Of a stretch of 43,540 nucleotides of DNA, positions 1-38,290 are shown in pieces. Position 1 is the stretch's first letter; each line of letters begins with the position of its first letter. The DNA is from Opitutales bacterium (GTDB lineage Bacteria; Verrucomicrobiota; Verrucomicrobiia; Opitutales; Oceanipulchritudinaceae), in assembly GCA_007123395.1 (NCBI GenBank), contig SKLD01000077.1, positions 1 through 43,540 on the forward strand, read 5' to 3'. Made by a program: the position numbers and the translations under genes. A model generated the notes under the pieces. It was not told where the DNA came from and made no database searches. It saw only the letters and a list, made by a program, of their open reading frames with translations.

Positions 1-3307
<3,307 letters not shown>

Positions 3308-4605: not shown

Positions 4606-4926
4606 TTGGCGTCCAATGAATGGGTTAGCCGTCCCGACTTCGGCGGGGTGCGGAGCAAGCTCTCGCACCTACTTCCGTGCGGCGGGAGTATGGGGGCATC
4701 GTGAGGCAAGCCCAAAGGTCCGGGTCAAAATCGAATCTCCGTGGAAGGTTTGCCCGTAGCGACGGAGCCACGCATCCGTCGACACACTTGTCGTCGGTTG
4801 GGCCGAACAAGATGAAAAATACTGCATAGATGTTGAAGATGAGCAGGGAGACGAAGAGAGAGATGAAGAAGGAGACGGAGAGGGAGCGGAAAATCTTTTT
4901 TGATATTGCGGAGTGAATAGCACGAA

Positions 4927-7737: not shown

Positions 7738-7813
7738 GGCGCGAATCTTCCGCCGCGTGGTGTTCCTTGTAAACCGAACATCCTTGTCGAATCCGGGAAA
7801 ATCCTTGTAGATT

Positions 7814-16937: not shown

Positions 16938-18188
16938 TCAGGCAACGCCGCCGGCGGCGATTTCTTCCTCAAGGCGGCCGCCGGAAAAGCGGGTGTAACC
17001 GGCGAGGCTGAACTCGCGGCCTTCGCTCTGTGCCCATGGGAGGTCGAGTTCGCGGAAAAGTTTTCCTGTGTTAAACGTGGTCTCTATCGCCTCGGGCAAT
17101 CCCTTTAGGCACAGGCTTTCCTCGCCGTTGACCGTTGAAGTGAATGTCCACTCCGCCGGGACATCGGAAATCCTGGCAGACTCATGGAGCGCGTTGACCA
17201 CCAGAGTGTGAGCGAAGGCCATGGAAGCCGTGCAGACTTTGGCGGAGGGGTCTTCGAGGCGCCGGAGGACGCAGTGCATCATGCTTGAGCGGACTTCATT
17301 GTAGTCGGTGAATGGATATACCTCCACCGCCTGTTCAGCGCCGTAGCGCACGATGCGAAACGGATCACAGTGAGACCACTCGACGCGGCCTTCCGAGCCC
17401 TCAATGTGCAAGACGGGTTGGACGCGTCTATCGCAGGCATGGGAGACGGCGAAAAACAACTCCGGTCCGTCGGCCGTGGTGATTCGGATGGCGGCGGTGT
17501 CGAAGTTTGTGATCGGCTTCACGCGGTAAAGGTCGGCCTCGACAACCGTTGGCCGCGCCACCTCCCGGAGGCCCTTGGCCCCTAAGAACAGCTCGAGATT
17601 AAGAAAGTGGGCCATGGCGTTGTTCACGGGTGAATCAAGGACCCAGCTCTCTCCCGCTTTGAGCTGACCCGCCCAGTTGTTGCGGTGGTAGTAGGACGGT
17701 GGTCGCGGCCAAAGACCCCAGCAGCGGATAGAGCGGATATCGCCGACGGCACCGCTCACGACCGCCTCCTTGACGGAACTCACCTCGGGCGAGTACAAGT
17801 CTTGGAAGCCGACGGCAATGAAGCGTCCGGTTTTCTTCTCGGCTTCCATCATGGCAAGGGCTTCCTGCACGGTGGCCGCGAGCGGCTTTTCCACGAGCAC
17901 GTTGGCCCCGGCATGAAGTGCTTTGATGGTCATGGAAGCATGCAGAGCGATCGGCACCGGGATTATACACAGATCGATCTTGCCCGACTCCGCCGCCCAC
18001 ATGGAGTCATCGTCCGGATAGATCCGGCAACCGGCGGAGCGCAGCTCTTCCACGCGGGCGGAGGCCTCCTCCGGATTGACAACGACCGCGGCGCGCAAGC
18101 GCAGTTGCCCGGACGCCTGCAATTGCAGGCAAACTTCCACATGCACCCGCGCGTAGCCGGTGACTCCGATGATTGCGACGTTTTTCAT
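16938..18188 (-). CDS. Gfo/Idh/MocA-family NAD(P)-dependent oxidoreductase
   Basis: The protein starts MKNVAIIGVTGYARVH (Rossmann) and contains the VLVEKPLA motif. The ATG at 18188 overlaps the upstream stop (ATGA). The track ORF extension to 18620 is Arg-rich and overlaps the upstream gene. Confidence 0.85.
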   Translation of the reverse strand: MKNVAIIGVTGYARVHVEVCLQLQASGQLRLRAAVVVNPEEASARVEELRSAGCRIYPDDDSMWAAESGKIDLCIIPVPIALHASMTIKALHAGANVLVEKPLAATVQEALAMMEAEKKTGRFIAVGFQDLYSPEVSSVKEAVVSGAVGDIRSIRCWGLWPRPPSYYHRNNWAGQLKAGESWVLDSPVNNAMAHFLNLELFLGAKGLREVARPTVVEADLYRVKPITNFDTAAIRITTADGPELFFAVSHACDRRVQPVLHIEGSEGRVEWSHCDPFRIVRYGAEQAVEVYPFTDYNEVRSSMMHCVLRRLEDPSAKVCTASMAFAHTLVVNALHESARISDVPAEWTFTSTVNGEESLCLKGLPEAIETTFNTGKLFRELDLPWAQSEGREFSLAGYTRFSGGRLEEEIAAGGVA

Positions 18189-20083
18189 ACGCGCCCTTTG
18201 TCTTCGATTTGTTGAATTCTGAGCGGCCCCTCGTGCCAGCGGCTCATTTCCAAAGCGATCTCCACGTCCCCGCACGCGGCGGCCACGACATCGTTGCGTT
18301 CCGTGCGCGTCCACGGCGGCACCTTGCCGCGACAGAGGGAGAAGACGACCAAAAATTCCGTTTGCTTCGCCCGCACCGAAGCCCGCACGTGGCGTACGCC
18401 GGGGTAGACGCGGTGAGCACCGTTGCTGAACGTGCGCTCGCTCGCGGGTCCCTCGACAAGCTCGACCGTCACGGGCTGCGGTTGAAGGAAGGCAGCGTCG
18501 AGAACGGCGTCTGATGCGGGGCGGCGCAGGATGAATCCGCCGCCGCCGGGCTTCGCTTCGAACTCTGTGCCGGGGCCGAGGCAAAGGGTCCATGTCCACT
18601 CGCGCTCCTCTTTGTCCCACAGGCGGTCATGCACGGCGACAATCGCTTCGCAACCGAGCTTGCCGCTGTAGTCGACGGCGAAATGCCGGTCGAGCCGCGC
18701 GACATTGTAGGTTTTGTCCAAGCGCAGGCTGACCGCTCCTCCGCCCGCCGGATAGGCCGCATGGTAGAGAATCTTGCCGGGAACCGTGGGCCAACCCTTC
18801 GGTTTCTGGCGTCCGTCGACGAGAATGGCGCACTGGTTTTCCGGACCGAATTTGGCCTGTCCGCCGTTCTGCGCCCATTCGCCGCCGAGGCCGACAAAGC
18901 GAAAACTTCCGGCATCGTCGTGCGCATGCCCGCCGCCGTGCCAGTTTTTCGCATAGGCACCGAACACACAATCATCGGAATCACGGTAGCGGTTGCGAAA
19001 GACGGCAAGGCCCGTGCGGAAGTCGGCGGGGGACAGCGGCAGGGTCGCTTCGGGCGGTTCAGCCGCTGTGTCGAGTGGATAATACAAAAACGTCCAGAGC
19101 AGATCGGTTTGGGCCTCCTTGTATGCCCCGTCCCCATGGTCCCCGTGCAGGGAGTCACAGAAACCCCGCAGGGAGGACCGGTAGCGCGCATCGGTGAGGG
19201 CGAAATGCATCATGCCAATGCCGGTGAAGCCGCCGTTGCCGCCATCGTCGTTCCAGAAAATCCTTCTTCCGAGCTTCTCCGGGGCATCCGCGCCAAGGGC
19301 ATCCGCGCGGTGGGGAAGCGCGACGGTCATCGCGGCGATGAGCGCTCCCATGCGTGCGATGCCGACATACTCCCCGACAAGGTCCGAGCCCGCCGCATGG
19401 CGCGCGGCGAGGACAAAAGGCGCCCAATGCGAAAAGGCGTATTGCCCGTAACCGGTCCCTTCGTAGCAATGCCCATGCTCGCCGTAGTGGGAAACGTAGA
19501 AGCGCACTTTCTCGGCAGCGGCCTCAAAAATTCCTCGGAGCGAGGCGTCGTAAGGGAGTGCGGCCAACGCCGCGAGTCCCTCCGCGGAGTGGGTCACCCC
19601 CCACCAGTTGTTGAAGGGGTTATCGGGGTTGCCTTGGGAAATATTGACGAAGTCGCGCGCGAGTTCGGCCGTCTTCGCGGCGAGTTCCATGGTGCTCGCG
19701 GGATCGGCGGCGGCCCCGCAAGTGTCGAGGGCGATGGCGCAGCGCTTCGCCTGCGCGGCGCGGCCAAGGCAGGAATCGATTCCCAACGTGGTGTTCCGCA
19801 ACGCTCCGTCGACGGCGGCCCGCGCGTAGGATGGCTCTCCCGTGGCGAGATAAAGCGTGGCGCAAAGGTCGACGGCCCGCTCCATGCGCAGTTTGCGCTC
19901 AAAGAGCGGTGCCCCCGCTTCGTCACAGTCGCCTTGAAGGAGGCGTTCGCCCTCCGCGCGCCATGACTGCACGGCGTCGGCGAGCGGGCCGGCGTTGAAT
20001 TGGCGCCGCCGCGCCGCGAGTGCCTCGGGTGTGATCCACAGGCGCGGTGGGGAGGGTGTTGGGTTGGCTTTGTTCGTGTTCAT
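18185..20083 (-). CDS. Heparinase II/III-like protein (putative polysaccharide lyase), no signal peptide
   Basis: The N-terminal half is alpha-helical and toroid-like. It is followed by NWHGGGHAHDDAGSFRF, the His-x-His-x-D-x-G-S-F signature typical of heparinase II/III C-terminal domains. Both neighbours are joined by 4-nt ATGA overlaps. Confidence 0.65.
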   Translation of the reverse strand: MNTNKANPTPSPPRLWITPEALAARRRQFNAGPLADAVQSWRAEGERLLQGDCDEAGAPLFERKLRMERAVDLCATLYLATGEPSYARAAVDGALRNTTLGIDSCLGRAAQAKRCAIALDTCGAAADPASTMELAAKTAELARDFVNISQGNPDNPFNNWWGVTHSAEGLAALAALPYDASLRGIFEAAAEKVRFYVSHYGEHGHCYEGTGYGQYAFSHWAPFVLAARHAAGSDLVGEYVGIARMGALIAAMTVALPHRADALGADAPEKLGRRIFWNDDGGNGGFTGIGMMHFALTDARYRSSLRGFCDSLHGDHGDGAYKEAQTDLLWTFLYYPLDTAAEPPEATLPLSPADFRTGLAVFRNRYRDSDDCVFGAYAKNWHGGGHAHDDAGSFRFVGLGGEWAQNGGQAKFGPENQCAILVDGRQKPKGWPTVPGKILYHAAYPAGGGAVSLRLDKTYNVARLDRHFAVDYSGKLGCEAIVAVHDRLWDKEEREWTWTLCLGPGTEFEAKPGGGGFILRRPASDAVLDAAFLQPQPVTVELVEGPASERTFSNGAHRVYPGVRHVRASVRAKQTEFLVVFSLCRGKVPPWTRTERNDVVAAACGDVEIALEMSRWHEGPLRIQQIEDKGRV

Positions 20084-21525
20084 CGTGCTGCGCCGCCAAT
20101 GGGCGTGAGACCAAGGACAACCGGACCGGAAGCACCGTGGGCAAGACGGAAGCGTTTTCCACGGCGGGCCATCGGCGCGGAAGGAGGACCGGCGGTCCTC
20201 ACGGCATACTCACCGTAATAGCCGCGGAAACGAACCACCCCTTCGTCATCGGAGACGGCCTCCGCGGTCGTTTTCCACTCACGGTGTATTAGATCGCGGA
20301 TACGATGGAACACGGGGCGGAGTTCGTGGCCGGACCGCTCGCGCCACTCCACCGCCATACCCATGAAGCCCCAGAAGGAAAAGGCCTCCACGGCGGGATG
20401 CCCGAAGGCGACGGTGAGGTAGTTGGCGACGTATTCGGCAAGCAGTTCGTGGAGATCCTTTTCGGGAACGTCCGGGTGCTTTTCGCGGAGGGTCTTAAGG
20501 TGCGCCCAGAACTCGGTGATATGGACCGGCCAGCCGGCCTCCGCGTACTCGTCGTAGACGTCGGTCTGCTCGCGGTGGTGCGTCAACCACCCCGTGTGGG
20601 ACTGGAGACCGAGGGCGTCGGGGGGAAAAGCCATGTCGCGCAGGCGGTCGGCCAACGCGATGTAGCGCGCCCGCTGGGAAGCCGCCGTCACTTCACTGCC
20701 ATCGGAGCCGGTGTGCCCGCGCGACTCGTTTTCGACGCCGTAGTCGTTGAGCAGGTAGAGCGCTTCGGGGTCTTCCTCACGGCACCAGCGCAGGACGGGG
20801 GCGATGTATTCCGCCATATTTTCCGTGCTCTCGATGTGAGGCCAGTGGCGCGCGGCGAGATTCTTCGGAGCGGGCTCCCAGAGGGCTTCGTTGACGGCGT
20901 CCCAAACCGTGACGCGCCCGCGGAAGCGGGCGACAAGGCTGCGCACACGGACCTCGGCGAACTTCATTTGGGTTTCAAGGTCGTAGCGCTTGACCCACTC
21001 CGGCGTGCATTTGTCGATCGACCAAAAGAGCGGGTGCCCTTTTGCCGTGAGGCCGTTGGCGAGGCACCAGTCCACGGTGGCGGCAAAATTTTCCACACGT
21101 TGCTCACCTTGGCGGTCCTCCGTCTTGGAGGCATCGTTGCGGGGCCGCTCCGTCCAGTAGCAGAGGTTTGTCGCACCATTGAAAACATCGAGGAAGCGCT
21201 GGCGCCACGCGCGGCAACGCTCCTTCTCCCACTCGCCGTCGCGCCACATGGCGTCGAGGCCCCAAAGCCCTTCTCCGAAAGTGAAGGCATGGCGCTGTTG
21301 TTCAATGGCGACGGAGACACCTTTGAGCGGATTTCCGCCGCCGTCGACGAGACGCAACGTGGCGTCGCCCATACGGTGGTTCCGGATGCCCTCCCGCGCG
21401 GCGCGCAAGGTGCCTTCGGAGAGCGAGGGATTGTAGAGGTCGCCGCTACGGTCCATGCCCCGCCATTCTTCGCCGTCAGGCGCAGGCGAGGGACCGTTCG
21501 GAAGTCCCTTGGTATTATCTGTCAT
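20080..21525 (-). CDS. GH10-like glycoside hydrolase (xylanase-fold), no signal peptide
   Basis: The sequence shows GHPLFW, VTVWDAVNEA (acid/base Glu context WDVVNE) and WPVHITEFW (nucleophile Glu context ITE). An N-terminal beta-sandwich-like segment reads ATLRLVDGGGNPLKGVSV. Confidence 0.7.
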   Translation of the reverse strand: MTDNTKGLPNGPSPAPDGEEWRGMDRSGDLYNPSLSEGTLRAAREGIRNHRMGDATLRLVDGGGNPLKGVSVAIEQQRHAFTFGEGLWGLDAMWRDGEWEKERCRAWRQRFLDVFNGATNLCYWTERPRNDASKTEDRQGEQRVENFAATVDWCLANGLTAKGHPLFWSIDKCTPEWVKRYDLETQMKFAEVRVRSLVARFRGRVTVWDAVNEALWEPAPKNLAARHWPHIESTENMAEYIAPVLRWCREEDPEALYLLNDYGVENESRGHTGSDGSEVTAASQRARYIALADRLRDMAFPPDALGLQSHTGWLTHHREQTDVYDEYAEAGWPVHITEFWAHLKTLREKHPDVPEKDLHELLAEYVANYLTVAFGHPAVEAFSFWGFMGMAVEWRERSGHELRPVFHRIRDLIHREWKTTAEAVSDDEGVVRFRGYYGEYAVRTAGPPSAPMARRGKRFRLAHGASGPVVLGLTPIGGAAR

Positions 21526-21554: not shown

Positions 21555-23666
21555 CTAGTAAGCTGTTCCGATAGAGGTCCAGAGGAAGTTGAGGGCGATG
21601 GCGAACATGCCGGTGAGCCCCATACCCGCCATGAATCCCACGGCGAGGATGGGCGTGTAGTTGGTCCACTGTTCGCGGCCGAATTTTTTGGCGAATACGT
21701 AACGCCCGAGGACGGCGCCAAGGAAGATGAGAACGGCGTTGTGCGGGTAGGCGACCATCGCGCCGAGCCCGCCGTAGATGTATTGGGCGCTGATACCGAG
21801 GGCGGCGAACCCGCTGAAAAACGCCAGCGCGGCGACGAGGGAGAATCCGATCAGGCCCGGTTTGAGCGATTCGAGGAGGAGACTCTGTCCCTCCTGCATG
21901 GAGGCGGCCCAGAGCGCCTTCAACTGCGCGAACTGCGGCCAGAACTTCTGTACATAGGGATAATTCTCCGACGGGATGGGACCGAGGCCCACGATGTAGC
22001 TCCAAAAGACAAACGAAGCGACGAGCATGAGGGGGAAAACGAGCAACTCGGCCTGCAGGATGGACGTGAACTTCGTGCGTGTGAGCTGGGTTTCCTTGAG
22101 AAGGTCGGCCATCTGCCCGTAGTTAAAGATGGGCAAGGGAGCGAACCAGATGTTCACCCCGCGGTGCCGGGAGGCGAAGATCGCCGCCTCGGAAACAAAG
22201 GGAATGCCCGCGTGCTGACCGGCGATCCCCGACATCCGCGCGTTGATGTAGGTGTTGATCGGCGAGAACAGAAAGGCGAAGGCGATCAACCACCAGATGC
22301 TGAAGCGCTCGTGTTCCTCAAGGCCGGCGTTGATGAGGTAGTTGGAGAGGACAATGAAACCGATGGAGGAGCCGATCCAAACGGCAAGGGCCACCCACGT
22401 GGGCGGATCGCCGCGCGGGATGTCCCGCTCCCACAGCTTCTTCAGCTCGAAGCCCGCGCCCGGATCACCGGGATCCTTTTCTTCATCGGCTCCCCCGCTC
22501 ATCCGTCGCCCCCGCAGCGCCTTCGAAATGGCTTTGAAGACCCCGTAGAAGCCGACCACCGCAATGGCAAAGGAAGTGCCGATGCCGACTGAAATGTAGA
22601 GGTCAATCTGCGTTGCGACGTGGGTTTCGATGGCGTCCTTCCCCGGTGCCCAACTCGGGATGTACCCCATGCGCTGGAGGATCGGGTTTAGGATGATTTG
22701 GAACGTGATCGCCGTGACAAACATGCCGATGACGATCCGCCATGGAAGAACGAAACCAAAGAAAAGAAGCGCGAGATTCAGACTCAGGCCGATCGTCCCG
22801 GCCGGCAACCAGCGTTCGAACGACGTTGTGAGATCAAGAAACGGGATGGGCAGGAGCTGGATGGGGCGACCGATAAAGGCCGCCGTGAGGGTCGGCACAG
22901 CGATGTAAACGATGCCGAAGACCACCCCCATGATGGCCCCCGCCGAAAAACAATACTGCCGGTAGCTATTCTTGTTTTTGTCCTGGCTGGTCTCGGCGAG
23001 GGCGATGGCCCCTTCCGCCGCAATCGGTGCAAGCGGGAACGGCAGCTTTTCCATGTCCGCCGTGGCTTTGAAGGCGATGAAGCCGAGGGAGAGTTGCGTG
23101 AGCTTGGACAGCAACATCGCCATGAGCATGACCGACAGAGCCGGGAACCATGCGCTGGAGAGAAAGCTTTGGTAGGCTTCCTCGCCGTAGGGCGCGACCC
23201 AGTCCGCCACCTCGTGCGAAATACCGAAGCTGTGGAAGGCCTCCGAATTGCGCATGTAGCGGTGCCAGACGAGCCATGCAAAGACGCCGCCACCAAGCGA
23301 TAATCCCCCCGCCACCGAAGTCAGCTGGCTGGCGGTGTATTTGAGGATGTAGAGTTCCTGCTTGCGCAGGGTGATGAACGCCCGCCGCGAGACCTCGACG
23401 AAGAGAATGATCGTCACCCATTCCGCCGCCGTGCCGAGGTCCTGCCCGATCATCAGCCCCATGAAAATGATGCCCGGGAGCATGACGAAGCAGATGAAGA
23501 ACGCGCCGAGGACTGTGCGCCATGTGAAGCCGCCTTCGTAGGGCTCGCTCTGGATCGCCTCGATGGAGAACTTCGCATCGTAAAAGCTCTCCTGCTTCGG
23601 TTGCTTTTTCTTCTCCGGCTTCCGCGCCTCCTTCGGCGCGGAAGACTTGTCGTTTTCAGCACTCAT
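21555..23666 (-). CDS. 703-aa polytopic membrane protein of unknown function (possibly OPT-superfamily-like)
   Basis: It has a Lys-rich cytoplasmic N-tail (KEARKPEKKKQPKQ) followed by more than 14 hydrophobic segments across the whole length. A charged loop (RGRRMSGGADEEKDPGDPG) lies mid-protein. The start overlaps the stop of the 1853-aa gene (ATGA). Confidence 0.8.
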   Translation of the reverse strand: MSAENDKSSAPKEARKPEKKKQPKQESFYDAKFSIEAIQSEPYEGGFTWRTVLGAFFICFVMLPGIIFMGLMIGQDLGTAAEWVTIILFVEVSRRAFITLRKQELYILKYTASQLTSVAGGLSLGGGVFAWLVWHRYMRNSEAFHSFGISHEVADWVAPYGEEAYQSFLSSAWFPALSVMLMAMLLSKLTQLSLGFIAFKATADMEKLPFPLAPIAAEGAIALAETSQDKNKNSYRQYCFSAGAIMGVVFGIVYIAVPTLTAAFIGRPIQLLPIPFLDLTTSFERWLPAGTIGLSLNLALLFFGFVLPWRIVIGMFVTAITFQIILNPILQRMGYIPSWAPGKDAIETHVATQIDLYISVGIGTSFAIAVVGFYGVFKAISKALRGRRMSGGADEEKDPGDPGAGFELKKLWERDIPRGDPPTWVALAVWIGSSIGFIVLSNYLINAGLEEHERFSIWWLIAFAFLFSPINTYINARMSGIAGQHAGIPFVSEAAIFASRHRGVNIWFAPLPIFNYGQMADLLKETQLTRTKFTSILQAELLVFPLMLVASFVFWSYIVGLGPIPSENYPYVQKFWPQFAQLKALWAASMQEGQSLLLESLKPGLIGFSLVAALAFFSGFAALGISAQYIYGGLGAMVAYPHNAVLIFLGAVLGRYVFAKKFGREQWTNYTPILAVGFMAGMGLTGMFAIALNFLWTSIGTAY

Positions 23667-26600
23667 GCGGTTTGCTTTTCTTCTGTGGTTTCACCGGAAA
23701 GCAGCGCGGCGCCCTGCTTGATGTATTCGGTCCGCGCGGCGGGGGAAAGATTACGCCAAAAAAGGAATTGCTGACGGACGAGGTTGAGGAAGTTGTAGCT
23801 TGTGCGCTGCCAATTGTCCTCGGATCCGGAAAAGCGTGTGAGGACGAGCCGCACGGCGTAGACCCCTTCCGCGTCACCCGGATACATCCGCATGCGGAAC
23901 CGTTGCGCCACATCGAGGTCATACGGGCTCAGCCACATGGACGTCTCCACGACGAGGGCGGGTTGGCCCTCCTCTTCCGTCTGGTCAAGGCTGACCTCGC
24001 GGCAATTGAAATCCTCGCTCGTCGGTTCGGTGTGGTTGAGGAGGAATTGCCGGAAAAACGCGGCCATGCCGACGGCGTTGCCGCGGGTGAGTGTAAAGGG
24101 CAGGTCGAAGCGGATGGCGCCGTCGTCACCCGGAGGCGGCAGTTCCCACGCGGCCATCCCGCTCGGCGCGGCGAGGGCGGCCGCCTGCTTCGCGGGGATG
24201 AGCGTCGCCATGAGCACGACGAGTCCCGTGCCGGCCGCGAGGAGCATGGAGAGCATGGACGTGAAGTTGAAGGACAATCCGCTCAAGAAGGCGATGTCGG
24301 CGGCATTCAGGCCTTGCACGATATTGGCGAAGAGCAGCCCGCCAAACGTTCCAAGAACAATGCCGAGGATCGAGAAAACCGTTGATTCCGAGAACATTAA
24401 AAAGGCGATCTGGCGCGGGGAGAGCCCGATGGCTCCGAGCATTCCGACCTCGCCCCTGCGCTCCTCCACCGTTCCGAGCATCGTGTTCATGACAATGAGA
24501 ATACAGAGAATGATGGGTAGAACGACCTTGGCGACACCGGCCATGTCGAAGGTCTGGCGGGGCACGACAAAACTCACCGCGCCATCCGAATGCGCGAAAA
24601 ACGGTCGGTTGAGCCGCAGCGCGATGTCGTGGAAAAATTGCTCTTGGTCCACACCCTCGGTGAAACGCAGGGCAACGGCGCGGATCTTCGCGCCCACGTC
24701 GTTGCGGGCCGCGTGGGGCACGATGGCGAGCCGCGTCCAGTTCATGTGGAAGGAATCCCCTTCCTGCTCCAGTTCGCCGCTGACGGCGGGGTGCATGCCG
24801 CTGCGGAGGTAATCCACCATGGCCAAACTGCGACCGTTGATATCGCGGATGCGGTTGGCCTTTTCCGTGTTGAGAATACCGATCACACTCCACTCATGCC
24901 CGCTCATGCGCACCTTCGGCAGTTCCGCTTCCGACCGCCGGTTGCCCGCGTCATCGAGGAGGTCGTCGGCTTGGATGCTAAGCGTGCGGGCCGCGACATC
25001 GGGCAATATGACGCTGAAGCGCTCGGGAGGCACAAGCGTGCCTTCCTCGTCAAAGCGTTCCGGCAAGAACCATTGCCCGCCCGTCACTGCTTCGTGCAAA
25101 CGGCTGAACTCCGGCTCGTTGGGCTGGAAGACCATTATGCCCGTGAGGATATGGGTCGTTTCCGCGTGATGGACGGGAATCTGGTTCACGCCCTCGCGCG
25201 CGGCGTTGTTGCCGCCCTCCACTTCGAGATAATGCGCCCGCACGGTGATGCCAAGGGTGTCACCGAACTCTGTTTCGAGGGCGTTCACGGCGCCGACCGG
25301 AAACTCGACCCACTGGAAACTACGGAAGAGCACGCCTTCGTAGGCCGGGGGCAACGGCTCCACATGCTCGCCGTCGACAAAGGTATCCAGCGCGACCGAC
25401 GCGCGCGAGACCGTGTCTTCGCCCGTCACGGCGACGAATGCGATAATGGAGAAGGTTAGCGCCGTCACCGTGAGAACGGTGAGAACGGTGCGGAACATGC
25501 GCTTGCGCAGGTTCGACACGCCGAGGGAAAAGGCCGTCGAAAGGGAGCTGAAGAAGGAAATCTCCTCGCTCTCCACCTCGCCCGAGGCGGAGCGGAACCG
25601 GCGCAGCAGGACTTCAAAACGCTGGTAACAAATCCCGATGACGATGAGCGACATGAGAATCATCGTGAAGGCGATCACGACAATGAAGGGCGAAAGCGCG
25701 ATGCGGAAGGCGGGGTGGAAGTAATTGAGGAAAAGCGTTCCCGCCGTGAAGATACCGGCCGTCCAGCCGAGTTTGGAAACAATGCCCTTGGATTTTGTGA
25801 AAAGAGACTGGAAAAACCACGCCGCGGGCACGAGGAAAGCCATGAGAAGAATTACGGAGAAAACGGCCTCGCGTCCGAGTTGCAGGACACGCGGGTAGTT
25901 TTTCACGAGGATTCCCCACGCCTCGCGGGAAGACCCGACGACGCCCATCCAATCGCGTTCCGCTTTGGCGGCATGCGCTTCAGCCAGCTTATCCCGGCTG
26001 CGTTCGACGGCGGCGTCGAGGACGCGCGAGGAAATCCCAAATGCGCGGTAAAGGTCGAGTCGCTGGCCCGCCAAGGCGGCCATCTGTTCCGCGATATGCA
26101 GAGGCGTCAGGGCAAGGTAAATGTTGCGGTCGCCGTCCGGACCGGGGCCGACCGAGATGCCCGCGCCGCGCGACTGGGTGACCCCGTCGGTTTCCACCTC
26201 GCCGACCAGAAGCATGCGGTGATGCGCGCCGCGCCGCACGACCGCGCGGAACCGGCTGTCCAAGGGCATGTGAATGGTGATGCCCTCGACATCCGGTTCA
26301 CGGAAGTCAGCGAGCGGGTTGTCCACCGCGAAGTCGCGCGGTTCGCCATCGATCACCGCGTCGATGAGTTCCACGCGGGAGGGACCACGCGCCGCGCCGC
26401 CGATGGAATCGTAGGAATGCGGATCGGTGCCGGGAAAAATGACTTTTGGATACGTGTCGATGAGGACAAGATTTCGTTCCAGCTCCGCGCTGCGGCGGTA
26501 TTGGAAATCGTTTGTCTGCGGTTGTGTTCCCACTTGCCCTTGCGTCATCACCTTGCGGAAAAGGCCCTCTTCGCGGTCCAACCAATAGGCGAAGACCACC

Positions 26601-29224
26601 GGGCGTGAGCGGAACCGCTGTGTCTCCAACGGCATCCGGAACGAGCCGTTGAGGAGGGTGATCGCGACCACTCCGCGTCGGTAGCCGAAAAATCCATACA
26701 CATTGTCATCGATAAACGCGCCATCGGCGGGATCGAGGGGCAGATAGACGTAGGTGCCCGCGACGGGGTCCCGCGCGTCGATGCCCGAGCGGATGTTGAA
26801 CTGGGTCGTGCGCCCGACCAAGCGGGACATTTCGCGCCGCAGGACGGTGGCATCGACGGAAGAATCGACCGGGCTCTCGGCGGCGAGTTTGGACAAGGTG
26901 AGGACCGTTCTCGCCTGCACGGAAACATTCTCGAAACGCACGCTTTCCAGCGTGTCCGCGGGAGTGTCGAGGAGAGGCGTGCGGTCGTTTTTGCCGCCCA
27001 TGGGCAAAAGAAGCACATCCCCGTAGAGCCAGAAGTCATCGTACAGAGGCATCGGCCTTGTGGGGATGAGGGCGAGGTTGGCCCGGTCGTCCGTGGAGAT
27101 AAACGTGAAATCCTCATCCCATCCGGCATGGGTGGCGGCATAGGCCGCCACCTCCCGAAGGCGCGGGTCGACACGACGCAGGAACGGATCTCCGCGACCG
27201 CCGCGGAGGCGGTCGGACGAGCCGAAAGTGGTGCCGATGGTGTGGCTGCCGTCGAGAACATCGAGCTGCCAACCCATCGCGAGACGGCCCGAGCCGTGGC
27301 CGCGGAGACGCGCCAGCAGCGCTTCGGCGATCTCCAGATTATTCTCATGGTTCTCGCGTGTGAGCCGCTCTTCCGCCAGCTCGCGCTCAAAGACCGCACG
27401 CAGGGACTCACGGTCAAGACCATACCCGCGCAGGCGCTCGCGCTTCTCCGGATCGTCGAGAATATCGGCGAAGGCACGGAGCCGTTCCCGCCCGGAGACC
27501 CGTAGATCGAGGCTGCGCATGCGCACGTCGACGATGAAATTGAGTTCCGCCTCGATCGCCCGCCGCCGTTCCAGAGCGGCCTTGCGCTCCTCCTCCGAAA
27601 CCGCGCGGTTGAAGGCGAGCACCTCCGGGATGCGGCGTTCCGCAAGGCTGATACGCACCTGCTCAAGCTGGTCCATGAGCCATTCGTCGGCCATCCAATA
27701 AGCCGCGTCCTCGCTCTGTGGCGGCCCCTCGCCCCGTATCCACGGGAGGGCCTCGTTATAGCGCCGCAGGACACCCTCGGCGTCGACCGCCGTCGTGCCG
27801 CCGCTGAGCGTCAGGCCGCCTTGGTGCTCGAGGAAATATTCCGCGAGAAGGCGGCTCCCCTGCCCGCCCAGCGTGTCGCCGTCGATGAAGCCGAAGACAA
27901 TGCCGCGGCGGCGGTTGACAAAGCGGCTCGTGGCAAAGTGCTCCATGAGGGTGAGCGCGGAAGCGAGATTGGCCATGGCCCGGGCTCCGTGGGGCGCGTC
28001 GGGAACGACGGAGGCGCTGTCGATCGGTGCGGTGAAGACCAATGGCACGGCGCGGTTGGGGATGAGGAGCGAGGTTCCGGGTCGCAGCGGCGCGTCGGGA
28101 GGGAGATCGTTCGCCGCGAGGATTTCCGCCGCATCGGTGCCGTAGAGGGAGGAGAAGCGACCGATCAGTTCGCCTTCCCGCACGGTGTGGGCGCCGCGCC
28201 CGCCCGGCAAGAGAAGACGCTGCCCCGCTTCGAGTTCAGGGGACTCCAAATCATTCGCGGCGAGAACATCCTCCGCCGTGAGTCCAAAATCCGAGGCGAT
28301 CAGCTCGAGGAGGGTCGATTCCGTGATCTCAACACGAACTGGATCGGTGGGCGGGAGATACGCGAAAAGACTCTCCACGGGGCGTTCCTCATAGACATTG
28401 CCGCCCTGAATACGGGCGGAGGCGGGGTTGCCGCCATCGAGCATGCGCGCGGCATTTTCACGGCCCGCTTCCACCATGCCCGCGCCCGTTTGCCGGTCGA
28501 TGTAGAACCGCGGATACGGGTTGGGGGTGCTGCTGAAAAGCATACGTGCGTTGCCGTATTGCACAAAATCGTCCTCCACCACGACCACGGCGACCGCGCC
28601 AAGCGAAAAGAGACGCTCCAAACGCCGCCCGCCGGCGAAGTCCATGACAGCCACCGCGCCGTCGAGGTCCAGCCCGCGCAGGTCATCCCAGCGCGCTTGG
28701 CGGACGTAGAGCAAGGGCCCTTCCAAACCCTCCCGCGGCGTGAGCGACGGCATGGGTCCGTTCGGCCAGAGCGGATGGACGTCCCAGCGTCTGCTTTCAA
28801 AGACAACGTGGGCGCGGTCGCGCCGCTCCTCGGCGGAGAGCAAATGATCGAAAGCGACCGGGGCGGCCACGCGGTCACGGAACGAACCGATGTATTCGAG
28901 ACCGTGTTCCTCCAGATCGGCGATGCGCCCGCGCAGGAATTCATGGATGGGCGAGCGCCCGTTTTCGAGGACGGTGCGCGCGCCGATGGCGGGTACGTCG
29001 AGGTCGAGAAGCTCGGCCGTGAGGGCGCGGATCGTTTCGGGCCGGGTGTCCTCCGCGATTTCGTTGAGCGAGGCGGTGGAGAGGGCTTCAAGCACCTCGA
29101 GCTGCTTGACCTGGGACGGGCTGATACGCGCGGCGATCTCCTCGTTGAAGGAGGCATGGGCCGACGAAAGAGCGGACGCCGCCGCGATGAGCAGAATGAA
29201 CGTGTTGCGGAAGCCGGTGTTCAT
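23663..29224 (-). CDS. 1853-aa fusion protein: signal peptide, PA-like domain, two LysM repeats, degenerate M28-like domain, helical region and large ectodomain, three TM helices, complete MacB-like module (TM1, periplasmic domain, FtsX domain), and a 165-aa cytoplasmic tail
   Basis: The ATG at 29224 (MNTGFRNTFILLIAAASALSSAHA) overlaps the upstream TGA by 1 nt. The PA-like segment is LDLDGAVAVMDFAGGRRLERLFSLGAVAVVVVEDD. The LysM repeats lie at nt 28058-28330. The M28-like segment is GIVFGFIDGDTLGGQGS. MacB TM1 is LRKRMFRTVLTVLTVTALTFSIIAFVAV (module nt 23666-25510). The FtsX domain is VVLPIILCILIVMNTMLGTVEERRGEVGMLGAIGLSPRQIAFLMFSES...LIPAKQAA (nt ~24176-24535). Confidence 0.9.
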   Translation of the reverse strand: MNTGFRNTFILLIAAASALSSAHASFNEEIAARISPSQVKQLEVLEALSTASLNEIAEDTRPETIRALTAELLDLDVPAIGARTVLENGRSPIHEFLRGRIADLEEHGLEYIGSFRDRVAAPVAFDHLLSAEERRDRAHVVFESRRWDVHPLWPNGPMPSLTPREGLEGPLLYVRQARWDDLRGLDLDGAVAVMDFAGGRRLERLFSLGAVAVVVVEDDFVQYGNARMLFSSTPNPYPRFYIDRQTGAGMVEAGRENAARMLDGGNPASARIQGGNVYEERPVESLFAYLPPTDPVRVEITESTLLELIASDFGLTAEDVLAANDLESPELEAGQRLLLPGGRGAHTVREGELIGRFSSLYGTDAAEILAANDLPPDAPLRPGTSLLIPNRAVPLVFTAPIDSASVVPDAPHGARAMANLASALTLMEHFATSRFVNRRRGIVFGFIDGDTLGGQGSRLLAEYFLEHQGGLTLSGGTTAVDAEGVLRRYNEALPWIRGEGPPQSEDAAYWMADEWLMDQLEQVRISLAERRIPEVLAFNRAVSEEERKAALERRRAIEAELNFIVDVRMRSLDLRVSGRERLRAFADILDDPEKRERLRGYGLDRESLRAVFERELAEERLTRENHENNLEIAEALLARLRGHGSGRLAMGWQLDVLDGSHTIGTTFGSSDRLRGGRGDPFLRRVDPRLREVAAYAATHAGWDEDFTFISTDDRANLALIPTRPMPLYDDFWLYGDVLLLPMGGKNDRTPLLDTPADTLESVRFENVSVQARTVLTLSKLAAESPVDSSVDATVLRREMSRLVGRTTQFNIRSGIDARDPVAGTYVYLPLDPADGAFIDDNVYGFFGYRRGVVAITLLNGSFRMPLETQRFRSRPVVFAYWLDREEGLFRKVMTQGQVGTQPQTNDFQYRRSAELERNLVLIDTYPKVIFPGTDPHSYDSIGGAARGPSRVELIDAVIDGEPRDFAVDNPLADFREPDVEGITIHMPLDSRFRAVVRRGAHHRMLLVGEVETDGVTQSRGAGISVGPGPDGDRNIYLALTPLHIAEQMAALAGQRLDLYRAFGISSRVLDAAVERSRDKLAEAHAAKAERDWMGVVGSSREAWGILVKNYPRVLQLGREAVFSVILLMAFLVPAAWFFQSLFTKSKGIVSKLGWTAGIFTAGTLFLNYFHPAFRIALSPFIVVIAFTMILMSLIVIGICYQRFEVLLRRFRSASGEVESEEISFFSSLSTAFSLGVSNLRKRMFRTVLTVLTVTALTFSIIAFVAVTGEDTVSRASVALDTFVDGEHVEPLPPAYEGVLFRSFQWVEFPVGAVNALETEFGDTLGITVRAHYLEVEGGNNAAREGVNQIPVHHAETTHILTGIMVFQPNEPEFSRLHEAVTGGQWFLPERFDEEGTLVPPERFSVILPDVAARTLSIQADDLLDDAGNRRSEAELPKVRMSGHEWSVIGILNTEKANRIRDINGRSLAMVDYLRSGMHPAVSGELEQEGDSFHMNWTRLAIVPHAARNDVGAKIRAVALRFTEGVDQEQFFHDIALRLNRPFFAHSDGAVSFVVPRQTFDMAGVAKVVLPIILCILIVMNTMLGTVEERRGEVGMLGAIGLSPRQIAFLMFSESTVFSILGIVLGTFGGLLFANIVQGLNAADIAFLSGLSFNFTSMLSMLLAAGTGLVVLMATLIPAKQAAALAAPSGMAAWELPPPGDDGAIRFDLPFTLTRGNAVGMAAFFRQFLLNHTEPTSEDFNCREVSLDQTEEEGQPALVVETSMWLSPYDLDVAQRFRMRMYPGDAEGVYAVRLVLTRFSGSEDNWQRTSYNFLNLVRQQFLFWRNLSPAARTEYIKQGAALLSGETTEEKQTA

Positions 29225-32122
29225 CAGTAGAGAGCGGGTATGTAGGGGACGTATTCGAGGAAGGTTCTGGCGAAGGCACCGGGATTGTCCACATGGCGGG
29301 CGTAAATGCCGCAGACCAAGTGGATCACGTTCCATGTGAAAATACAGACGACCGAGCCGACAACGAGACCGACGAAAAACGGCTTGGCACGCTTGTAGGA
29401 AGTCATGCCGCCGTATTTGACGATCAGTTTTTTAAGGAGCCACGCGACAAGCGCGCCGCCCCAGAGTGTCGAGCCTTGCACGATCCGTTCTTCACCGGTG
29501 CCTATGTAGGGAGACACCCATGCGTAGTGAATGCTCAAAAGGAGCAGCAAGTAGCCGACGGGATGCAGCGGAAAGCGGAGGAATTTTTGGCGAAGGTAAA
29601 GCAGCAGGCCGATGACGGCGGCCCCCACGCCGATGGCACCGATGCGCAACCAGTTGGGTGAATCAAATTGGTCGAGCCCGGGTTCGCCGAGAAAGTGGGA
29701 AACCCAGAGGGGATAGGTGGCGAGCTGCTGGCCTCCCGGTTGACCGGCGTGGGGCGGCAGCGCCTCTCCGCCGAAGAAGTCATGGCCGATGTAAAAAGTA
29801 AAGAGAAGGTAGCTCAGAAGGCCGACGCCGACCGCCGTTGCGAAGGAGAAGGCGCCGCTCACCGCGACCGTGCGGAAGGAGATGCGGTAACGCCGCGCCA
29901 GCTCCATGTTCTCCAGTTGCTGCGGCAGCGTGCGGAAGAGCAGCGTCATGGGCAGGAAAACAATGTTCACAAAGGCCGCGTAATTCTTTGCTCCGGACAT
30001 GCCGGTGAGACCGAGGACGATGGGCAGTTTGGTGTTTTCGTAAAAAACGTGCGTGGTGGGAAGCCCGGTCTCAGCGCGCACGCGCGCGGCCGCGACGGTC
30101 ACCGCGAGCAGAGCGATGCTGAAAGCGCTGAGGAGCGCGATACTGCGCACGCCGAGGCTCCAGAGCAGGGCGAGAATCACCGCCGGCGCGATGATGAGAC
30201 CCCAGCGGGTGAGGGCGGGCGGGAGGTAGGCCTCCGCTTTTTCGGCGGACGTTTTGGGAACGGTCGCGTTTTGGCGGCTCTTCCAAATCATGAAGACCGC
30301 GAAAACAAGGCAGGCCCCGAGCATCTGCTCCATCGGCCACGGATAAAAGCGCCCGTCGCCGAAACCCGTCCAGCCGCTGTCCTGCAGATTCGGGAACATC
30401 AGGCGGAAGACCCAACTAATCCCGATGTAGAGCAGAAACGTTGCCCAAATGGCGAAGCCGACCTCAAGACTGAGGAGAAAGACGAGCCCGACGACAATGG
30501 GCGAGAGCACGAAAACCATCGTCGGCACCTCGCGCAACGCCCCACCCGCCTGCGCGAAGATTTCGTCGTTGAAGTGAAAATAAAAGGAAGCGTCGGCGGC
30601 GAGAAACCCGTAATGTCCCAAAGCCTCGAAAAAGAGCATCAGAAAACCAACGGCGAAACCCATCATGGCGAGCGGATAGAAGGCGCGGCTGCGCCGTTCG
30701 GGATTGGTTCCATCGCCTCCGAGTTCGAGGCGGTAGTCGTGCCGGATAATGTTGTCGGCGATTTCGACGAGCGGAAAGGCGAGATTTTCCCGGCTCACCC
30801 ACTTGCGGCGGAAGAACTCCGCGAGGCACATGAGAAAGAAATAGAAGGCAAAGAAGAGCACCGTCCACGAGAGGAACGGACGCACATACAGAGCCCATGG
30901 AATGCCGTCCACAAGGGTGGCGAAATTCTCCCGCCAGCCCGCGCGTTCCCGCGCGTCGCGCGCTTGCGAATCGGCCCAGAGGCTGTGCTCAAGGGCCCAC
31001 AGGTTTTGGTTCGGTCCCACTTCCCCGTCCTGCCGCACGAGCGCGCGGCGCTCCTCGCGCGAGAGGCGGAAGGAAAAGCTGTTGCGTTCGGCGTCGAACT
31101 CACCCCGCGACAGCTCCTCCATCCGCGAGGTTTCCCTCAAGCGGACACGGTCGCGCAATTCGTCGCGGTCGGAGAAGGCCAGCGCCGCGACACGGGCGCG
31201 GACCTCCGCCTCGCGCTCCTCCAAGCGGGCGACAACCGCCTCCTTCGCTTCGCGTCGGGCGGGATCGAGGCGCCCCGTCTCCTCCATCAGGCGCTCGCGG
31301 GCGCTGAAGTCCATCGCCTCCACATTGGACGGCAACAGACTGGCGTGCCATTCGTTGATTCCTTCGAGATCGTCCCGCAGGGCCTCCATGGCGCGGCGGC
31401 TCGCCTCGGCGGTGGCTGTGGAATGCTCCCGCAACAACTCGAGAAGTCCCAATTCCGCGAGGATCTCGTCCATGCCGAGGCCGCGGATCTCCTGCGCGCC
31501 GTCGAAGCTCAGCTCACCCACCCGCTCGCGCAGAGCGACGAGTTCTTCGTCCGACGGATCCGTGCGCGCCCGTTGCAGGAGATCCCGCCGCATCAACTCG
31601 TCCGTGAGCACGAGGGCGAGGGTGCGCCGGGCGTCGCGCTGCCGACGGGCCTCGGCATCGTCCTCAAGGAAGCGGAGAAGGCGGTCCGCCCGGTTCCACG
31701 CGAGCCCCTCAAACGTCGGCACTTTGGGAAACCAACGATCATCGAGGACATCGTAGGCCGTGCGGTAGGTTGAGGTGCCCTCGATCATATACTCCCGCAT
31801 GACGGCGTGCGTCGCGTTGAAAAACGGGCGCATGAGCCCCAAATTCATCACCGGCACGGCGATCGCGAGCATCGTGTAGAGGAGCGCCAGTTCGGCGCGG
31901 CTCCACAAATCGCGCTTCGCGAGGGTGCGCACGGCGAGCCCCGCGAGAGCGAGACTGAAAACAATCCCCACGACCCAGCCCGCCGGGGTCGTCGTTTCCA
32001 TCGCGGAGTTGATGGTGAGAATCGTGAGGAATTGTGCCAGCGGCGTGATCACCGCAATCAACAGCAGTCCGGAGACCACCGTCAAAACGGGCCGAATTCC
32101 CTCGCGGGGGGCGGGCGCGCCC

Positions 32123-32847
<725 letters not shown>

Positions 32848-32851
<4 letters not shown>

Positions 32852-33642
32852 GCCTTGTTCTCCTCCTCGAACTCATCGATCTTGATGTCCACCTCGTCGC
32901 GGCGCGCCAGCTTCTTCACCCGCCCGTCCTCCATCCACATGATGCGGTCGGATATATCGAGCATCTTGTGGTCGTGCGTGGAGCAAATGACCGTCACGCC
33001 TTCCTCGCGGTTCATCTCTTTCATGAGTGCGATGATCTCCTCGCCGGTATGCAAATCGAGGTTGGCCGTGGGCTCGTCGGCGAGGATAATGGCCGGTTTG
33101 TTGGCGAAGGCGCGGGCGATGGCCACGCGCTGTTGCTGCCCGCCGGAAAGCTCCTTGGGCGTGTGCAGAAAGCGATCGCCAAGCCCGACACGCGTGAGGA
33201 TTTCGACAGCGCGGTTTTGCGCCTCGTCCTGCGGCACGCCCGCGAAAAGCATGGGCAGCATGACGTTTTCGAGCGCCGTCATGACCTTCACGATGTTGTA
33301 GCTTTGGAAAATATAGCCGATCTTACGGCAGCGCAGCCATGCGAGTTCGCCCGCGTCGAGCTGCGCGATATCGATTTCATCGATGTAGACGCTCCCCGCG
33401 GAAGGTTTCATGAGACCGCCCACGACATTGAAAAAGGTCGTCTTCCCAGAACCCGAAGGCCCCATGATGGAGATATATTCGCCCGTGAAAATCTGCGCGT
33501 CCACCCCTTGGAGGGCATGGATTTTTTCGCTTCCCATTTCATAGACGACTTCGACCCCCCGCGCCATGACGGTGCAATCGACCGCCTGCGAAAGATCGGC
33601 CATCCAGTAATCGGCCTTTGTTTTGGCTGCTGCTTCCGGCAT
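32848..33642 (-). CDS. ABC transporter ATP-binding protein, MacB/LolD/FtsE-type (NBD 1)
   Basis: The motifs are Walker A GPSGSGKTT, IGYIFQSYNI, LSGGQQQRVAIARA, ILADEPTANLD and STHD. It has an extra ~25-aa N-terminal extension and an acidic C-tail (DEFEEENKA). GGAG lies 5 nt upstream of the ATG. Confidence 0.95.
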
Positions 33643-38223: not shown

Positions 38224-38290
38224 GCTCGATAGGGGGGTCGTTTTCCGTGTTCCGTTGACACCGTCGGCGCGAAAATATTCCTGTTTATGC

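Follow-up and report, generated by a model that had tools for sequence, protein, structure and literature searches.

ABC (ATP-binding cassette) systems of type VII, among them MacB, LolCDE, FtsEX, BceAB, HrtBA and YbbAP, are the model for moving mechanical work, and not solutes, across the inner membrane, and in these characterised systems any periplasmic partner is, to our knowledge, a separate protein. Here we describe a family in which the partner can be fused to the engine, as a dead peptidase of the nicastrin/transferrin receptor kind. The member studied is encoded in a 43,540-nt stretch of DNA from an Opitutales bacterium (Verrucomicrobiota; contig SKLD01000077.1, positions 1 to 43,540), termed the window, in which a minus-strand gene at 23663..29224 specifies a giant protein of 1853 aa. 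The giant protein is the large transmembrane domain (TMD) subunit of a type VII (MacB/LolCE/FtsX-fold) ABC system; it is neither MacB proper nor the division protein FtsX. The engine is genetically tied to permease-like proteins from two families that are uncharacterised, one of them carrying DUF names only. We propose that the giant protein forms part of a heteromeric ABC engine of type VII, fitted with a fused receptor and serving the permeases encoded next to it, and give this reading an even chance of being correct.

Like MacB, the giant protein has an FtsX domain with four transmembrane (TM) helices, of which TM1 and TM2 are separated by a large periplasmic domain, as well as a coupling-helix motif, and MacB is the best Foldseek match of its C-terminal module. 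MacB, however, carries a fused N-terminal ATPase, forms a homodimer and acts with MacA and TolC, whereas the giant protein has separately encoded ATPases and no adaptor or duct gene. It also adds an ectodomain of 1093 aa, three TM helices in front of the MacB-type unit and a cytoplasmic domain of 165 aa behind it. With LolCDE it shares the combination of two different FtsX-type TMDs and separate LolD-type ATPases; LolC and LolE are strong fold matches, and the operon ATPases score highest with LolD, although below the cut-off. LolC and LolE are of similar size (~400 aa), whereas the two TMD proteins of this locus measure 1853 and 195 aa, two distinct ATPases stand against a LolD dimer, and a LolA-like partner is lacking. 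An engine of this type is familiar, unlike the receptor fused to it, the additional TM helices, the domain at the C-terminus and the obligate permease partners.

Integrity, distribution and fusion state of the giant gene

The giant gene lies in a minus-strand open reading frame (ORF) running from 29335 to 23663, in which the ATG at 29224 gives the 1853-aa product followed by a stop codon. This ATG has one base, A, in common with the TGA of the upstream gene (ctcTACTGATGaac), and the TGA of the giant gene overlaps the ATG of the downstream gene as ATGA (gcATGAgt). These overlaps indicate that the giant gene and both neighbours are translationally coupled and that 29224 is the true start. A longer reading of 1890 aa from 29335 was rejected; it runs inside the upstream gene, and homologues begin at the Met equivalent to 29224. 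A homology search with the giant protein returned 45 relatives (labelled P00xx). A 98%-identical protein of 1853 aa was found on seven other contigs, 40 further full-length relatives had 1711-2154 aa and 37-81% identity over 70-100% of the query, and the remaining four, more distant, had 1510-1933 aa. The 98%-identical copies and the full-length relatives rule out a frameshift or an assembly fusion, and intact copies were also present in the genome loci described below; the giant gene, which the preliminary description had treated as a single unit, is indeed one intact gene and not two or three genes joined by a frameshift. Source annotation of the relatives is generic ('LysM peptidoglycan-binding domain-containing protein', 'ABC transporter permease', 'FtsX-like permease family protein'). 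Pfam and NCBIfam scans found no curated family covering the giant protein, and a literature search retrieved no paper on the giant family or on DUF6785/DUF6784.

When one genome of each species was scanned with the C-terminal module as the query, a relative was found to be encoded in at least 585 of them. The best 80 of these at least 585 loci, all from metagenome-assembled genomes, were examined, and their neighbours were surveyed by simple ORF calling of our own and HMMER thresholds. They came from Opitutales/Puniceicoccaceae and other Verrucomicrobiota, Phycisphaerae, Planctomycetaceae, Victivallales, Anaerolineales, Armatimonadota, Latescibacterota, Poribacteria, WS1 and Zipacnadia, the closest being from an Opitutales genome (88%); the family thus sits in phyla known mainly from metagenomes. 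A profile search of 1.84 billion representatives yielded 1452 clusters (50% identity) at E <= 1e-30. In the top 150 clusters the module was C-terminal in proteins mostly of 1450-3053 aa, and about 25 representatives of 649-1355 aa were possibly truncated.

All ORFs that were not cut by a contig end in the 80 loci measured 1500-2500 aa, and the ectodomain was detected in the same ORF in nearly all uncut copies; in the divergent long ORFs of L005, L062, L069, L076 and L078, phmmer with the window ectodomain gave no match. The preliminary description had suggested a Rosetta-stone analysis of the fusion, and this survey revealed no genuine split version in the best 80 loci. The sole broken copy (L073, 6750-14359) is located on a contig of 4.3x coverage on which the OPT-like neighbour is broken too, and a sequencing error is more likely here than a real split or a pseudogene. 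As all complete ORFs in the 80 loci fall within 1500-2500 aa, the covalent fusion of ectodomain and permease is real and widespread; it is the universal state of the family and no lineage oddity.

Membrane topology and the MacB-type module

All features of the giant gene and its operon are encoded on the minus strand. The protein begins with a predicted signal peptide (residues 1-26; 29147..29224) whose hydrophobic core spans residues 8-26 and which has an AHA|S site of the cleavage type; after it, analysis of hydropathy and flanking charges detected no hydrophobic segment before residue ~1120. TM segments then follow at ~1120-1138, 1150-1170 (weak) and 1180-1198, succeeded by an Arg/Lys-rich loop, a TM segment at 1247-1265, a hydrophilic domain of 295 aa, three TM segments within 1561-1686 and a tail of 167 aa. 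The middle one of the extra helices is weakly hydrophobic, yet it is helical in the structural model and conserved. Residues 27-1119 and 1266-1560 are predicted to lie outside the cytoplasm and the tail inside, because of the charge distribution and the TM parity obtained with the signal peptide cleaved. This topology agrees with the N-in orientation of TM1 in FtsX/MacB, and it upholds the earlier placement of the N-terminal part outside, not within, the cytoplasm.

Structures were predicted in two pieces from family alignments of 16-17 sequences, and the domain borders given are approximate. Three family-specific TM helices (1119-1213; 25586..25870), delimited by hydropathy, flanking charges and model helices, contain an invariant HPAF motif; together with the linker up to residue 1240 they are among the most conserved stretches, with 72-75% identity among close relatives. 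They are followed by a cytoplasmic linker, an amphipathic pre-helix and the FtsX-type TM1 (1214-1265; 25430..25585; hydropathy, model and Foldseek), by the MacB-type periplasmic domain (1266-1560; 24545..25429) and by TM2-TM4 of the FtsX domain with the coupling-helix motif (1561-1686; 24167..24544). Pfam FtsX matched residues 1569-1676 (E 1.3e-13; 51.5 bits against a cut-off of 25.5), the MacB unit as a whole comprising residues 1244-1686, and T1581, M1582, E1588, R1589 and E1592 are invariant in the coupling-helix motif. Foldseek with the model of the C-terminal module (residues 1085-1853; pLDDT 77.9, pTM 0.50) returned whole-chain matches to MacB (5gko, 8.8e-11; also 5nik and 5lil), LolC/LolE, HrtB, the pneumococcal permease 5xu1, YtrF, YbbP and BceB. 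The alignments to whole MacB and LolC/E chains spanned 480-540 columns, and the periplasmic domain matched those of MacB, LolC/E and HrtB, including the isolated MacB periplasmic domain 5c59 (E 3.9e-3). A profile of the 45-member family, searched against PDB sequences, recovered parts from both halves of the protein: the Thermus tandem LysM protein 4uz2 (5e-16), YtrF (4e-12), LolC, LolF, MacB, LolE, the PA region of the aminopeptidase 2ek8 (1e-5) and nicastrin (2e-4).

Pfam MacB_PCD gave no match in the window protein and a weak one only in the distant homologue P0042, NCBIfam yielded only far sub-threshold matches to ADOP and LolC, and no NCBIfam FtsX model matched the giant protein. The complete MacB-type permease of the preliminary description was thus confirmed by the significant FtsX profile and by the Foldseek match to MacB, but not by the MacB_PCD profile. 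The family-specific cytoplasmic domain at the C-terminus (1687-1853; 23666..24166) is an alpha/beta domain with the order b-a-b-b-b-b-a-a in the model. It had no Pfam or NCBIfam match and only marginal Foldseek matches (SRPBCC-like 2d4r, E 0.028, and PsbP), so that its earlier description as a cytoplasmic domain of ~165 aa of no known type stands; it is kept in all distant homologues.

In three relatives (P0035, P0039 and P0041), LysM-like segments were noticed by eye inside the MacB periplasmic domain, e.g. 'HVVKEGETLADVAKKWFVDPKALLGPNGL...PGATLRIP'; whole-protein Pfam searches of P0035 and P0039 counted two LysM stretches only. Such segments would represent independent gains of glycan binding in both extracytoplasmic parts.

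Structure of the ectodomain

The model of the ectodomain (residues 27-1119) had a mean pLDDT of 88.7 and a pTM of 0.87. In Foldseek searches against PDB, bacterial M28 aminopeptidases with a protease-associated (PA) domain ranked at the top (2ek8, 1.2e-12; BSAP 6hc6; PaAP 8acg; 3iib), followed by transferrin receptor 1 and glutamate carboxypeptidase II/III at 1e-9 to 1e-7. Many of these alignments spanned ~760-830 columns, indicating that the M28 fold is interrupted by a PA domain, two LysM domains and a five-helix Arg/Glu block. The M28 alpha/beta fold is present in the ectodomain according to both Foldseek and profile searches, and Pfam Peptidase_M28 matched distant homologues only and not the window protein.

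The ectodomain starts with N-terminal helices and the first M28 strand (27-138; 28811..29146), to which the Foldseek M28 alignments of the AF2 model extend. A PA-like insertion follows (~139-299; 28328..28810), recognised by Foldseek and by the family profile against the PA domains of 2ek8 (E 3.7e-7) and NAALADL1 (4twe). The two LysM domains (~300-391; 28052..28327) were detected as two stretches by Pfam (E 1.4e-13) and aligned with 4uz2 in a PDB profile search (E 4e-16); they are recognisable as beta-alpha-alpha-beta modules of ~44 residues, for which glycan binding is predicted. The first half of the M28 core (392-481; 27782..28051), identified by HMMER alignment to 1amp/3b35, contains degenerate HxDS, GAxDD and EE motifs. 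It is separated by an Arg/Glu-rich helical insertion (482-641; 27302..27781), modelled as five long helices, from the second half (642-790; 26855..27301; alignment to 1amp), which contains WQLD655 and LLD753-TPAD757-T. The subsequent beta-rich region (791-1036; 26117..26854), defined by model strands, had no PDB sequence match and no separate Foldseek match among the 50 listed, all of them M28 matches. A three-helix stalk (1037-1118; 25871..26116; model helices 1014-1092) leads into the first TM helix. All domain elements listed in the preliminary description are therefore present, the signal peptide included, with two amendments: the large ectodomain has 1093 aa and not ~1130, and the Arg/Glu helical stretch is inserted inside the M28 fold and does not follow it, as judged from the model and the M28-core profile.

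The length of the helical insertion differs by clade, the gap between the M28 halves measuring 109-774 aa. Three Phycisphaerae-type relatives (P0014, P0039 and P0041) have two extra hydrophobic helices in the ectodomain right after the first M28 half, e.g. 'FPYFGIVFGILLGGGIGAFVGAMLAMG...GGGCAIVGCVIALMPYV'; such a TM hairpin would leave the topology unchanged while fastening the M28 domain to the membrane. In a distant branch (P0044 and P0045; L006, 5541-11342) the signal peptide is replaced by an N-terminal cytoplasmic PqqD-like domain (peptide-binding, RRE-type; Pfam PqqD, E 2.5e-7) and a signal anchor.

LysM domains occurred in every complete copy from the Planctomycetes–Verrucomicrobia–Chlamydiae (PVC) group and in none of the copies outside it, the LysM-less members belonging to Anaerolineales, Armatimonadota, Latescibacterota and Poribacteria. 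This distribution bears on the possibility of a wall-remodelling system resembling FtsEX-EnvC, in which motion of the MacB unit would switch a LysM-anchored pseudo-peptidase and thereby activate or position separate peptidoglycan hydrolases. EnvC, which consists of a coiled coil and a degenerate LytM domain, is driven by FtsEX (PMC7668044). As in FtsEX-EnvC (and FtsEX-PcsB/CwlO/RipC), a type VII engine would here move periplasmic helical hairpins together with a dead peptidase, and the dead M28 fold with its long helical hairpins parallels the coiled coil and degenerate LytM domain of EnvC. The idea is attractive for the PVC clade, whose members carry two bona fide LysM domains in the ectodomain and, in some Phycisphaerae, the LysM-like segments seen by eye in the MacB periplasmic domain, where Pfam counts two stretches per protein only. 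It leaves the LysM-less majority unexplained, however, and because LysM is absent from every member outside PVC, peptidoglycan binding cannot be the core function of the family. In FtsEX-EnvC, moreover, the partner is a separate LytM/M23 protein and the periplasmic domain of FtsX is small, whereas the giant protein has a fused M28/PA domain, recurrent partners that are polytopic and permease-like, and no linked hydrolase: no peptidoglycan hydrolase, amidase or division gene was present among the neighbours scanned with Pfam or looked up in the loci. NCBIfam FtsX models do not recognise the giant protein either, and we consider wall remodelling quite unlikely. The suggestion of the preliminary description that the protein acts on the cell wall had rested on LysM and is not supported for the family.

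Loss of the M28 active site

An M28-core profile was made after splicing out the insertions and was searched against PDB. Its best matches were the Vibrio leucyl aminopeptidase (AAP; 3b35/1amp, 3e-6), nicastrin (2e-5), Dictyostelium nicastrin, nicalin (5e-3) and 2ek8. In the HMMER alignment to 1amp, H97 corresponded to P400, the catalytic E151 to D450, E152 to T451 and H256 to D753, while no acidic residue was aligned with D117 (R415/A416). WQLD655V corresponds by eye to LQLD179M of AAP, and the equivalent of D179 (D655) may remain. Among H97, D117, E151, E152 and H256 of AAP, a conservative replacement of Glu by Asp (at E151) is all that is left in the giant protein.

The same residues are missing throughout the family. 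The column of His97 contained Pro in 27 and His in two of the 45 relatives, and the six commonest residues in the columns flanking Asp117 (39 and 42 of 45 rows) were all non-acidic; two distant homologues, P0042 and P0043, had Glu in the Asp117 motif (GAES and GAEE in the spliced alignment). In the Glu152 column the six most frequent residues, which account for 42 of 45 rows, did not include Glu, and Asp occupied the His256 column in 42 of 45 relatives. D402, R458 and D757, located at the vestigial pocket, were invariant in the family alignment. As the di-zinc and catalytic residues are missing family-wide, the M28 part is, to judge from these alignments, non-catalytic, with a pocket conserved as expected of a binding module. 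The term 'pseudo-peptidase-like' had therefore been well chosen; the label 'effector' had not, and 'receptor' or 'scaffold', non-catalytic and of the nicastrin/transferrin receptor kind, suits the fused module better.

Two groups of known proteins resemble the ectodomain. The bacterial PA-domain M28 aminopeptidases (Aneurinibacillus 2ek8, BSAP 6hc6 and PaAP 8acg) gave the best overall fold match (1e-12 to 1e-8) and share the PA insertion, but they are soluble, secreted, active di-zinc enzymes of ~400-500 aa, whereas the giant protein has no equivalents of H97, D117, E152 and H256. Nicastrin, nicalin, the transferrin receptor and glutamate carboxypeptidase II likewise have a PA domain inserted in an M28 fold and form membrane-tethered binding ectodomains, and zinc ligands have been lost in the first three. 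All four differ in being eukaryotic and single-pass, in having a helical domain that follows the M28 domain and is not inserted in it, and in that none is fused to a transporter. The ectodomain of the giant protein resembles nicastrin, nicalin and the transferrin receptor in kind, by its fold and its lost zinc ligands.

Nicastrin and nicalin are non-catalytic M28 ectodomains attached to polytopic membrane complexes, and an analogue of nicastrin/gamma-secretase or nicalin/BOS might be imagined here, in which the dead M28 domain controls whether membrane-embedded clients reach the polytopic partners to be cleaved, inserted or quality-checked. Both proteins were among the best sequence matches of the M28 core (2e-5 and 5e-3). 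The active bacterial aminopeptidases, however, matched equally well or better, so that the resemblance to nicastrin is one at the level of the fold. No protease motifs were spotted in the partners, and their OPT-like signal points to transport; such handling of membrane proteins is very improbable.

The operon and its ABC subunits

The giant gene is part of an operon of nine tightly packed minus-strand genes, of which six are of transport type and tightly coupled and three encode enzymes in this lineage. The order is mini-FtsX, ATPase, ATPase, DUF6785+DUF6784 protein, giant, 703-aa protein, GH10, 632-aa protein and GFO/IDH/MocA. The mini-FtsX protein (195 aa; 33652..34239; Pfam FtsX, E 9e-18) is the probable hetero-partner TMD; it has four or five TM segments and a periplasmic loop of only ~14 residues, and matched NCBIfam FtsX models far below threshold only. 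The two ABC ATPases (264 aa, 32848..33642, ABC_tran E 3e-32; and 242 aa, 32123..32851, ABC_tran E 2e-30) are 51% identical to each other and have intact Walker A/B, LSGGQ and H-loop motifs. Their best NCBIfam matches were LolD (top), DevA, MacB and FtsE, all below the equivalog cut-offs. The polytopic membrane protein with DUF6785 and DUF6784 (978 aa; 29224..32160; Pfam E 8.6e-47 and 1.6e-19) precedes the giant gene, and the polytopic OPT/YSL-like 703-aa protein (21555..23666), with its remote OPT signal, is coupled to the end of the giant gene. In Pfam searches no nucleotide-binding domain was found in the giant protein, and no HlyD or OEP family gene in the operon. The giant protein had been described as a self-contained mechanotransduction device. 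This is not the case: it is one of six transport-type gene products, with separate ATPases, a probable mini-FtsX partner and linked polytopic proteins.

The downstream genes encode a GH10 protein (481 aa; 20080..21525; Pfam), a 632-aa protein (18185..20083) and a GFO/IDH/MocA oxidoreductase (16938..18188; Pfam). The 632-aa protein is weakly PL35/DUF4962-like (PL35 chondroitinase, E 0.008; DUF4962 weak; no Pfam match) and may be a cytoplasmic enzyme resembling polysaccharide lyases. All three proteins have no signal peptides, and their genes are translationally coupled downstream.

The organisation is conserved to different degrees. The locus L001, whose giant homologue is 65% identical, has the same nine genes in the same order, while in distant loci (homologues 20-38% identical) the core set recurs in shuffled order: DUF6785, giant, 680-aa protein, FtsX and ABC in L005; ABC, FtsX, ABC, giant and partner in L006; ABC, DUF6785, giant, 715-aa protein, FtsX and ABC in L007; and giant, 656-aa protein and GFO/IDH/MocA in L003. 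The mini-FtsX and ATPase genes are linked to the giant gene in PVC and Anaerolineales loci, and mini-FtsX also in some loci of other clades. Three distant clades have a GFO/IDH/MocA gene downstream of the giant gene; besides it, nothing informative was seen among the neighbours in Armatimonadota-type, Latescibacterota and Poribacteria loci. In loci of Armatimonadota, Zipacnadia and WS1 (L055, L058, L074, L083, L085 and L087) a fixed order was observed, consisting of DUF6785, giant, a ~340-aa protein without Pfam match and GFO/IDH/MocA. An IS200-like Y1 transposase gene (15840-16847, plus strand) flanks the end of the operon in the window, and in L001 a Y1_Tnp gene (3744-4646) is located at the opposite end.

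The gene content also bears on a role as an exporter or extractor in the manner of MacB, LolCDE, HrtBA or YbbAP. The engine would extract or expel a lipid, a glycolipid, a peptide or the precursor of a polysaccharide from the periplasm or the outer leaflet, the OPT-like and DUF6785 proteins would flip or deliver the molecule, and the ectodomain would be a platform for assembly or an acceptor in the periplasm. That every characterised type VII system acts outward or inside the envelope (PMC12646458, PMC5985334) speaks for such a role, as does the fold, nearest to MacB, LolC/E and HrtB, and the large conserved ectodomain could be an acceptor. The operon, however, contains no gene for a MacA-type adaptor or TolC-type duct and no biosynthetic genes, and its enzymes, which have no signal peptides, are of degradative and not synthetic families (GH10, weakly lyase-like). 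There is no lipoprotein or heme-type cue, and export is unlikely on balance.

Permease-like partners

In nearly all of the 80 loci, a profile search placed an OPT-like partner, a DUF6785 partner or both beside the giant gene. PVC and Anaerolineales loci had both genes; those of Armatimonadota, Zipacnadia, WS1 and most Latescibacterota lacked an OPT-like gene and carried one or two copies of DUF6785 upstream, and those of Poribacteria and some others had the OPT-like gene only. This complementary clade pattern suggests that the two polytopic families fill equivalent roles beside the giant protein. The DUF6785 gene lies upstream of the giant gene in most loci, and in almost every PVC and Anaerolineales locus the OPT-like gene abuts or overlaps the end of the giant gene. 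In L003 the giant protein is only 26% identical to that of the window, but its partner shares 42% identity with the 703-aa protein, so that the OPT-like partner is under stronger constraint than the giant protein.

The assignment of the 703-aa protein is made with reserve. Only one of 15 scanned members of its family, from Anaerolineales, approached the Pfam OPT threshold (25.5 bits against a cut-off of 25.8; E 6.4e-6), and the window protein gave no match. PF03169 was precomputed in five of 120 listed relatives, and NCBI names another one 'OPT/YSL family transporter'. The protein resembles OPT/YSL transporters in size (Pfam profile of ~620 positions), in being polytopic and in the remote Pfam OPT matches of several members; it differs in that every match is at or below the Pfam threshold and that OPT proteins are not known to cooperate with ABC systems. 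With this reserve, and from sequence comparison, we regard it as probably OPT/YSL-like. The DUF6785 protein had no match among PDB sequences.

DUF6785/6784 proteins of PVC bacteria contain an Arg/Glu-rich helical insertion of ~300 aa between TM3 and TM4 (residues ~110-428 in the window protein), predicted by TM parity to be periplasmic. Across clades, the length of the DUF6785 partner broadly tracks that of the helical insertion of the giant protein, which may mark a contact between the two proteins; as the pattern follows clades and hence phylogeny, it is not independent evidence.

Proposed mechanism

In the heteromeric engine with a fused receptor that we propose, the giant protein and mini-FtsX would form an asymmetric TMD pair on an ATPase dimer, by analogy with LolC/LolE, and gene content and knowledge of the family suggest that power would be supplied by the two separately encoded LolD/MacB-type ATPases. 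ATP binding would zip the stalk helices TM1 and TM2 and shift the periplasmic domain as in MacB and FtsEX, and the motion of the MacB unit would be passed on to the ectodomain. Synteny and conservation are consistent with the extra TM helices and the ectodomain docking the engine onto the OPT-like and/or DUF6785/6784 proteins. As receptor or gate, the ectodomain would capture a periplasmic or wall-associated ligand that contains peptide or glycan and hand it to the permeases or open them. For this Opitutales operon, the likely process would be uptake of an oligosaccharide or glycopeptide, which the co-transcribed GH10, lyase-like and GFO/IDH/MocA proteins would process in the cytoplasm. The direction of import is suggested by the three downstream enzymes having no signal peptides, and the GFO/IDH/MocA genes downstream in three distant clades are a further hint; import specifically is held to be unlikely.

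Several observations weigh against this proposal. We know of no type VII ABC system that drives import, and OPT transporters are proton-driven and need no ATPase. The assignment to OPT is sub-threshold, and the 703-aa family had no PDB match in sequence searches made singly or with the family profile. Homology between the OPT-like and DUF6785 proteins was not detectable (hhalign probability 3.9%, a '..E.L.FPL' motif being all that was shared), and no OPT match was found in any DUF6785 relative. No ATPase or mini-FtsX gene was present within 10 kb in the Armatimonadota, Zipacnadia and most Latescibacterota loci or in L003. The contacts of the giant protein with mini-FtsX and the permease-like proteins are deduced from gene order only, and the packing of domains in the C-terminal module is uncertain because its pTM of 0.50 was obtained from a 16-sequence alignment. 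As to the ligand, the glycan enzymes are lineage-specific neighbours, and GFO/IDH/MocA proteins are very common in these phyla.

Elucidating the function of the family would give a role to several thousand large 'hypothetical' membrane proteins and could reveal a new coupling of ATP hydrolysis to transport or envelope maintenance. A bolder form would be a hybrid uptake machine, in which the MacB-fold engine and its receptor use ATP to capture large glycans or peptides derived from the wall or the environment and to force or gate them through the OPT-like and/or DUF6785/6784 permeases. We hold this form to be improbable; if true, the type VII fold would for the first time be seen in an importer, and the machine could be a general route of nutrient acquisition in PVC bacteria, Armatimonadota, Latescibacterota and other polymer degraders, most of them uncultured.

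Other genes in the window

Four further genes were observed outside the operon. A plus-strand gene at 38123-43060 encodes a 1645-aa protein with Lamin-tail, PA14, CHB_HEX_C/Fn3-associated and CotH kinase domains, and another at 944-3307 a 787-aa protein with two stretches matching a Pfam peroxidase family. On the minus strand, a 964-aa FAD_oxidored protein with three matched stretches is encoded at 4927-7821 and a membrane protein with an HTTM domain at 8984-10558.

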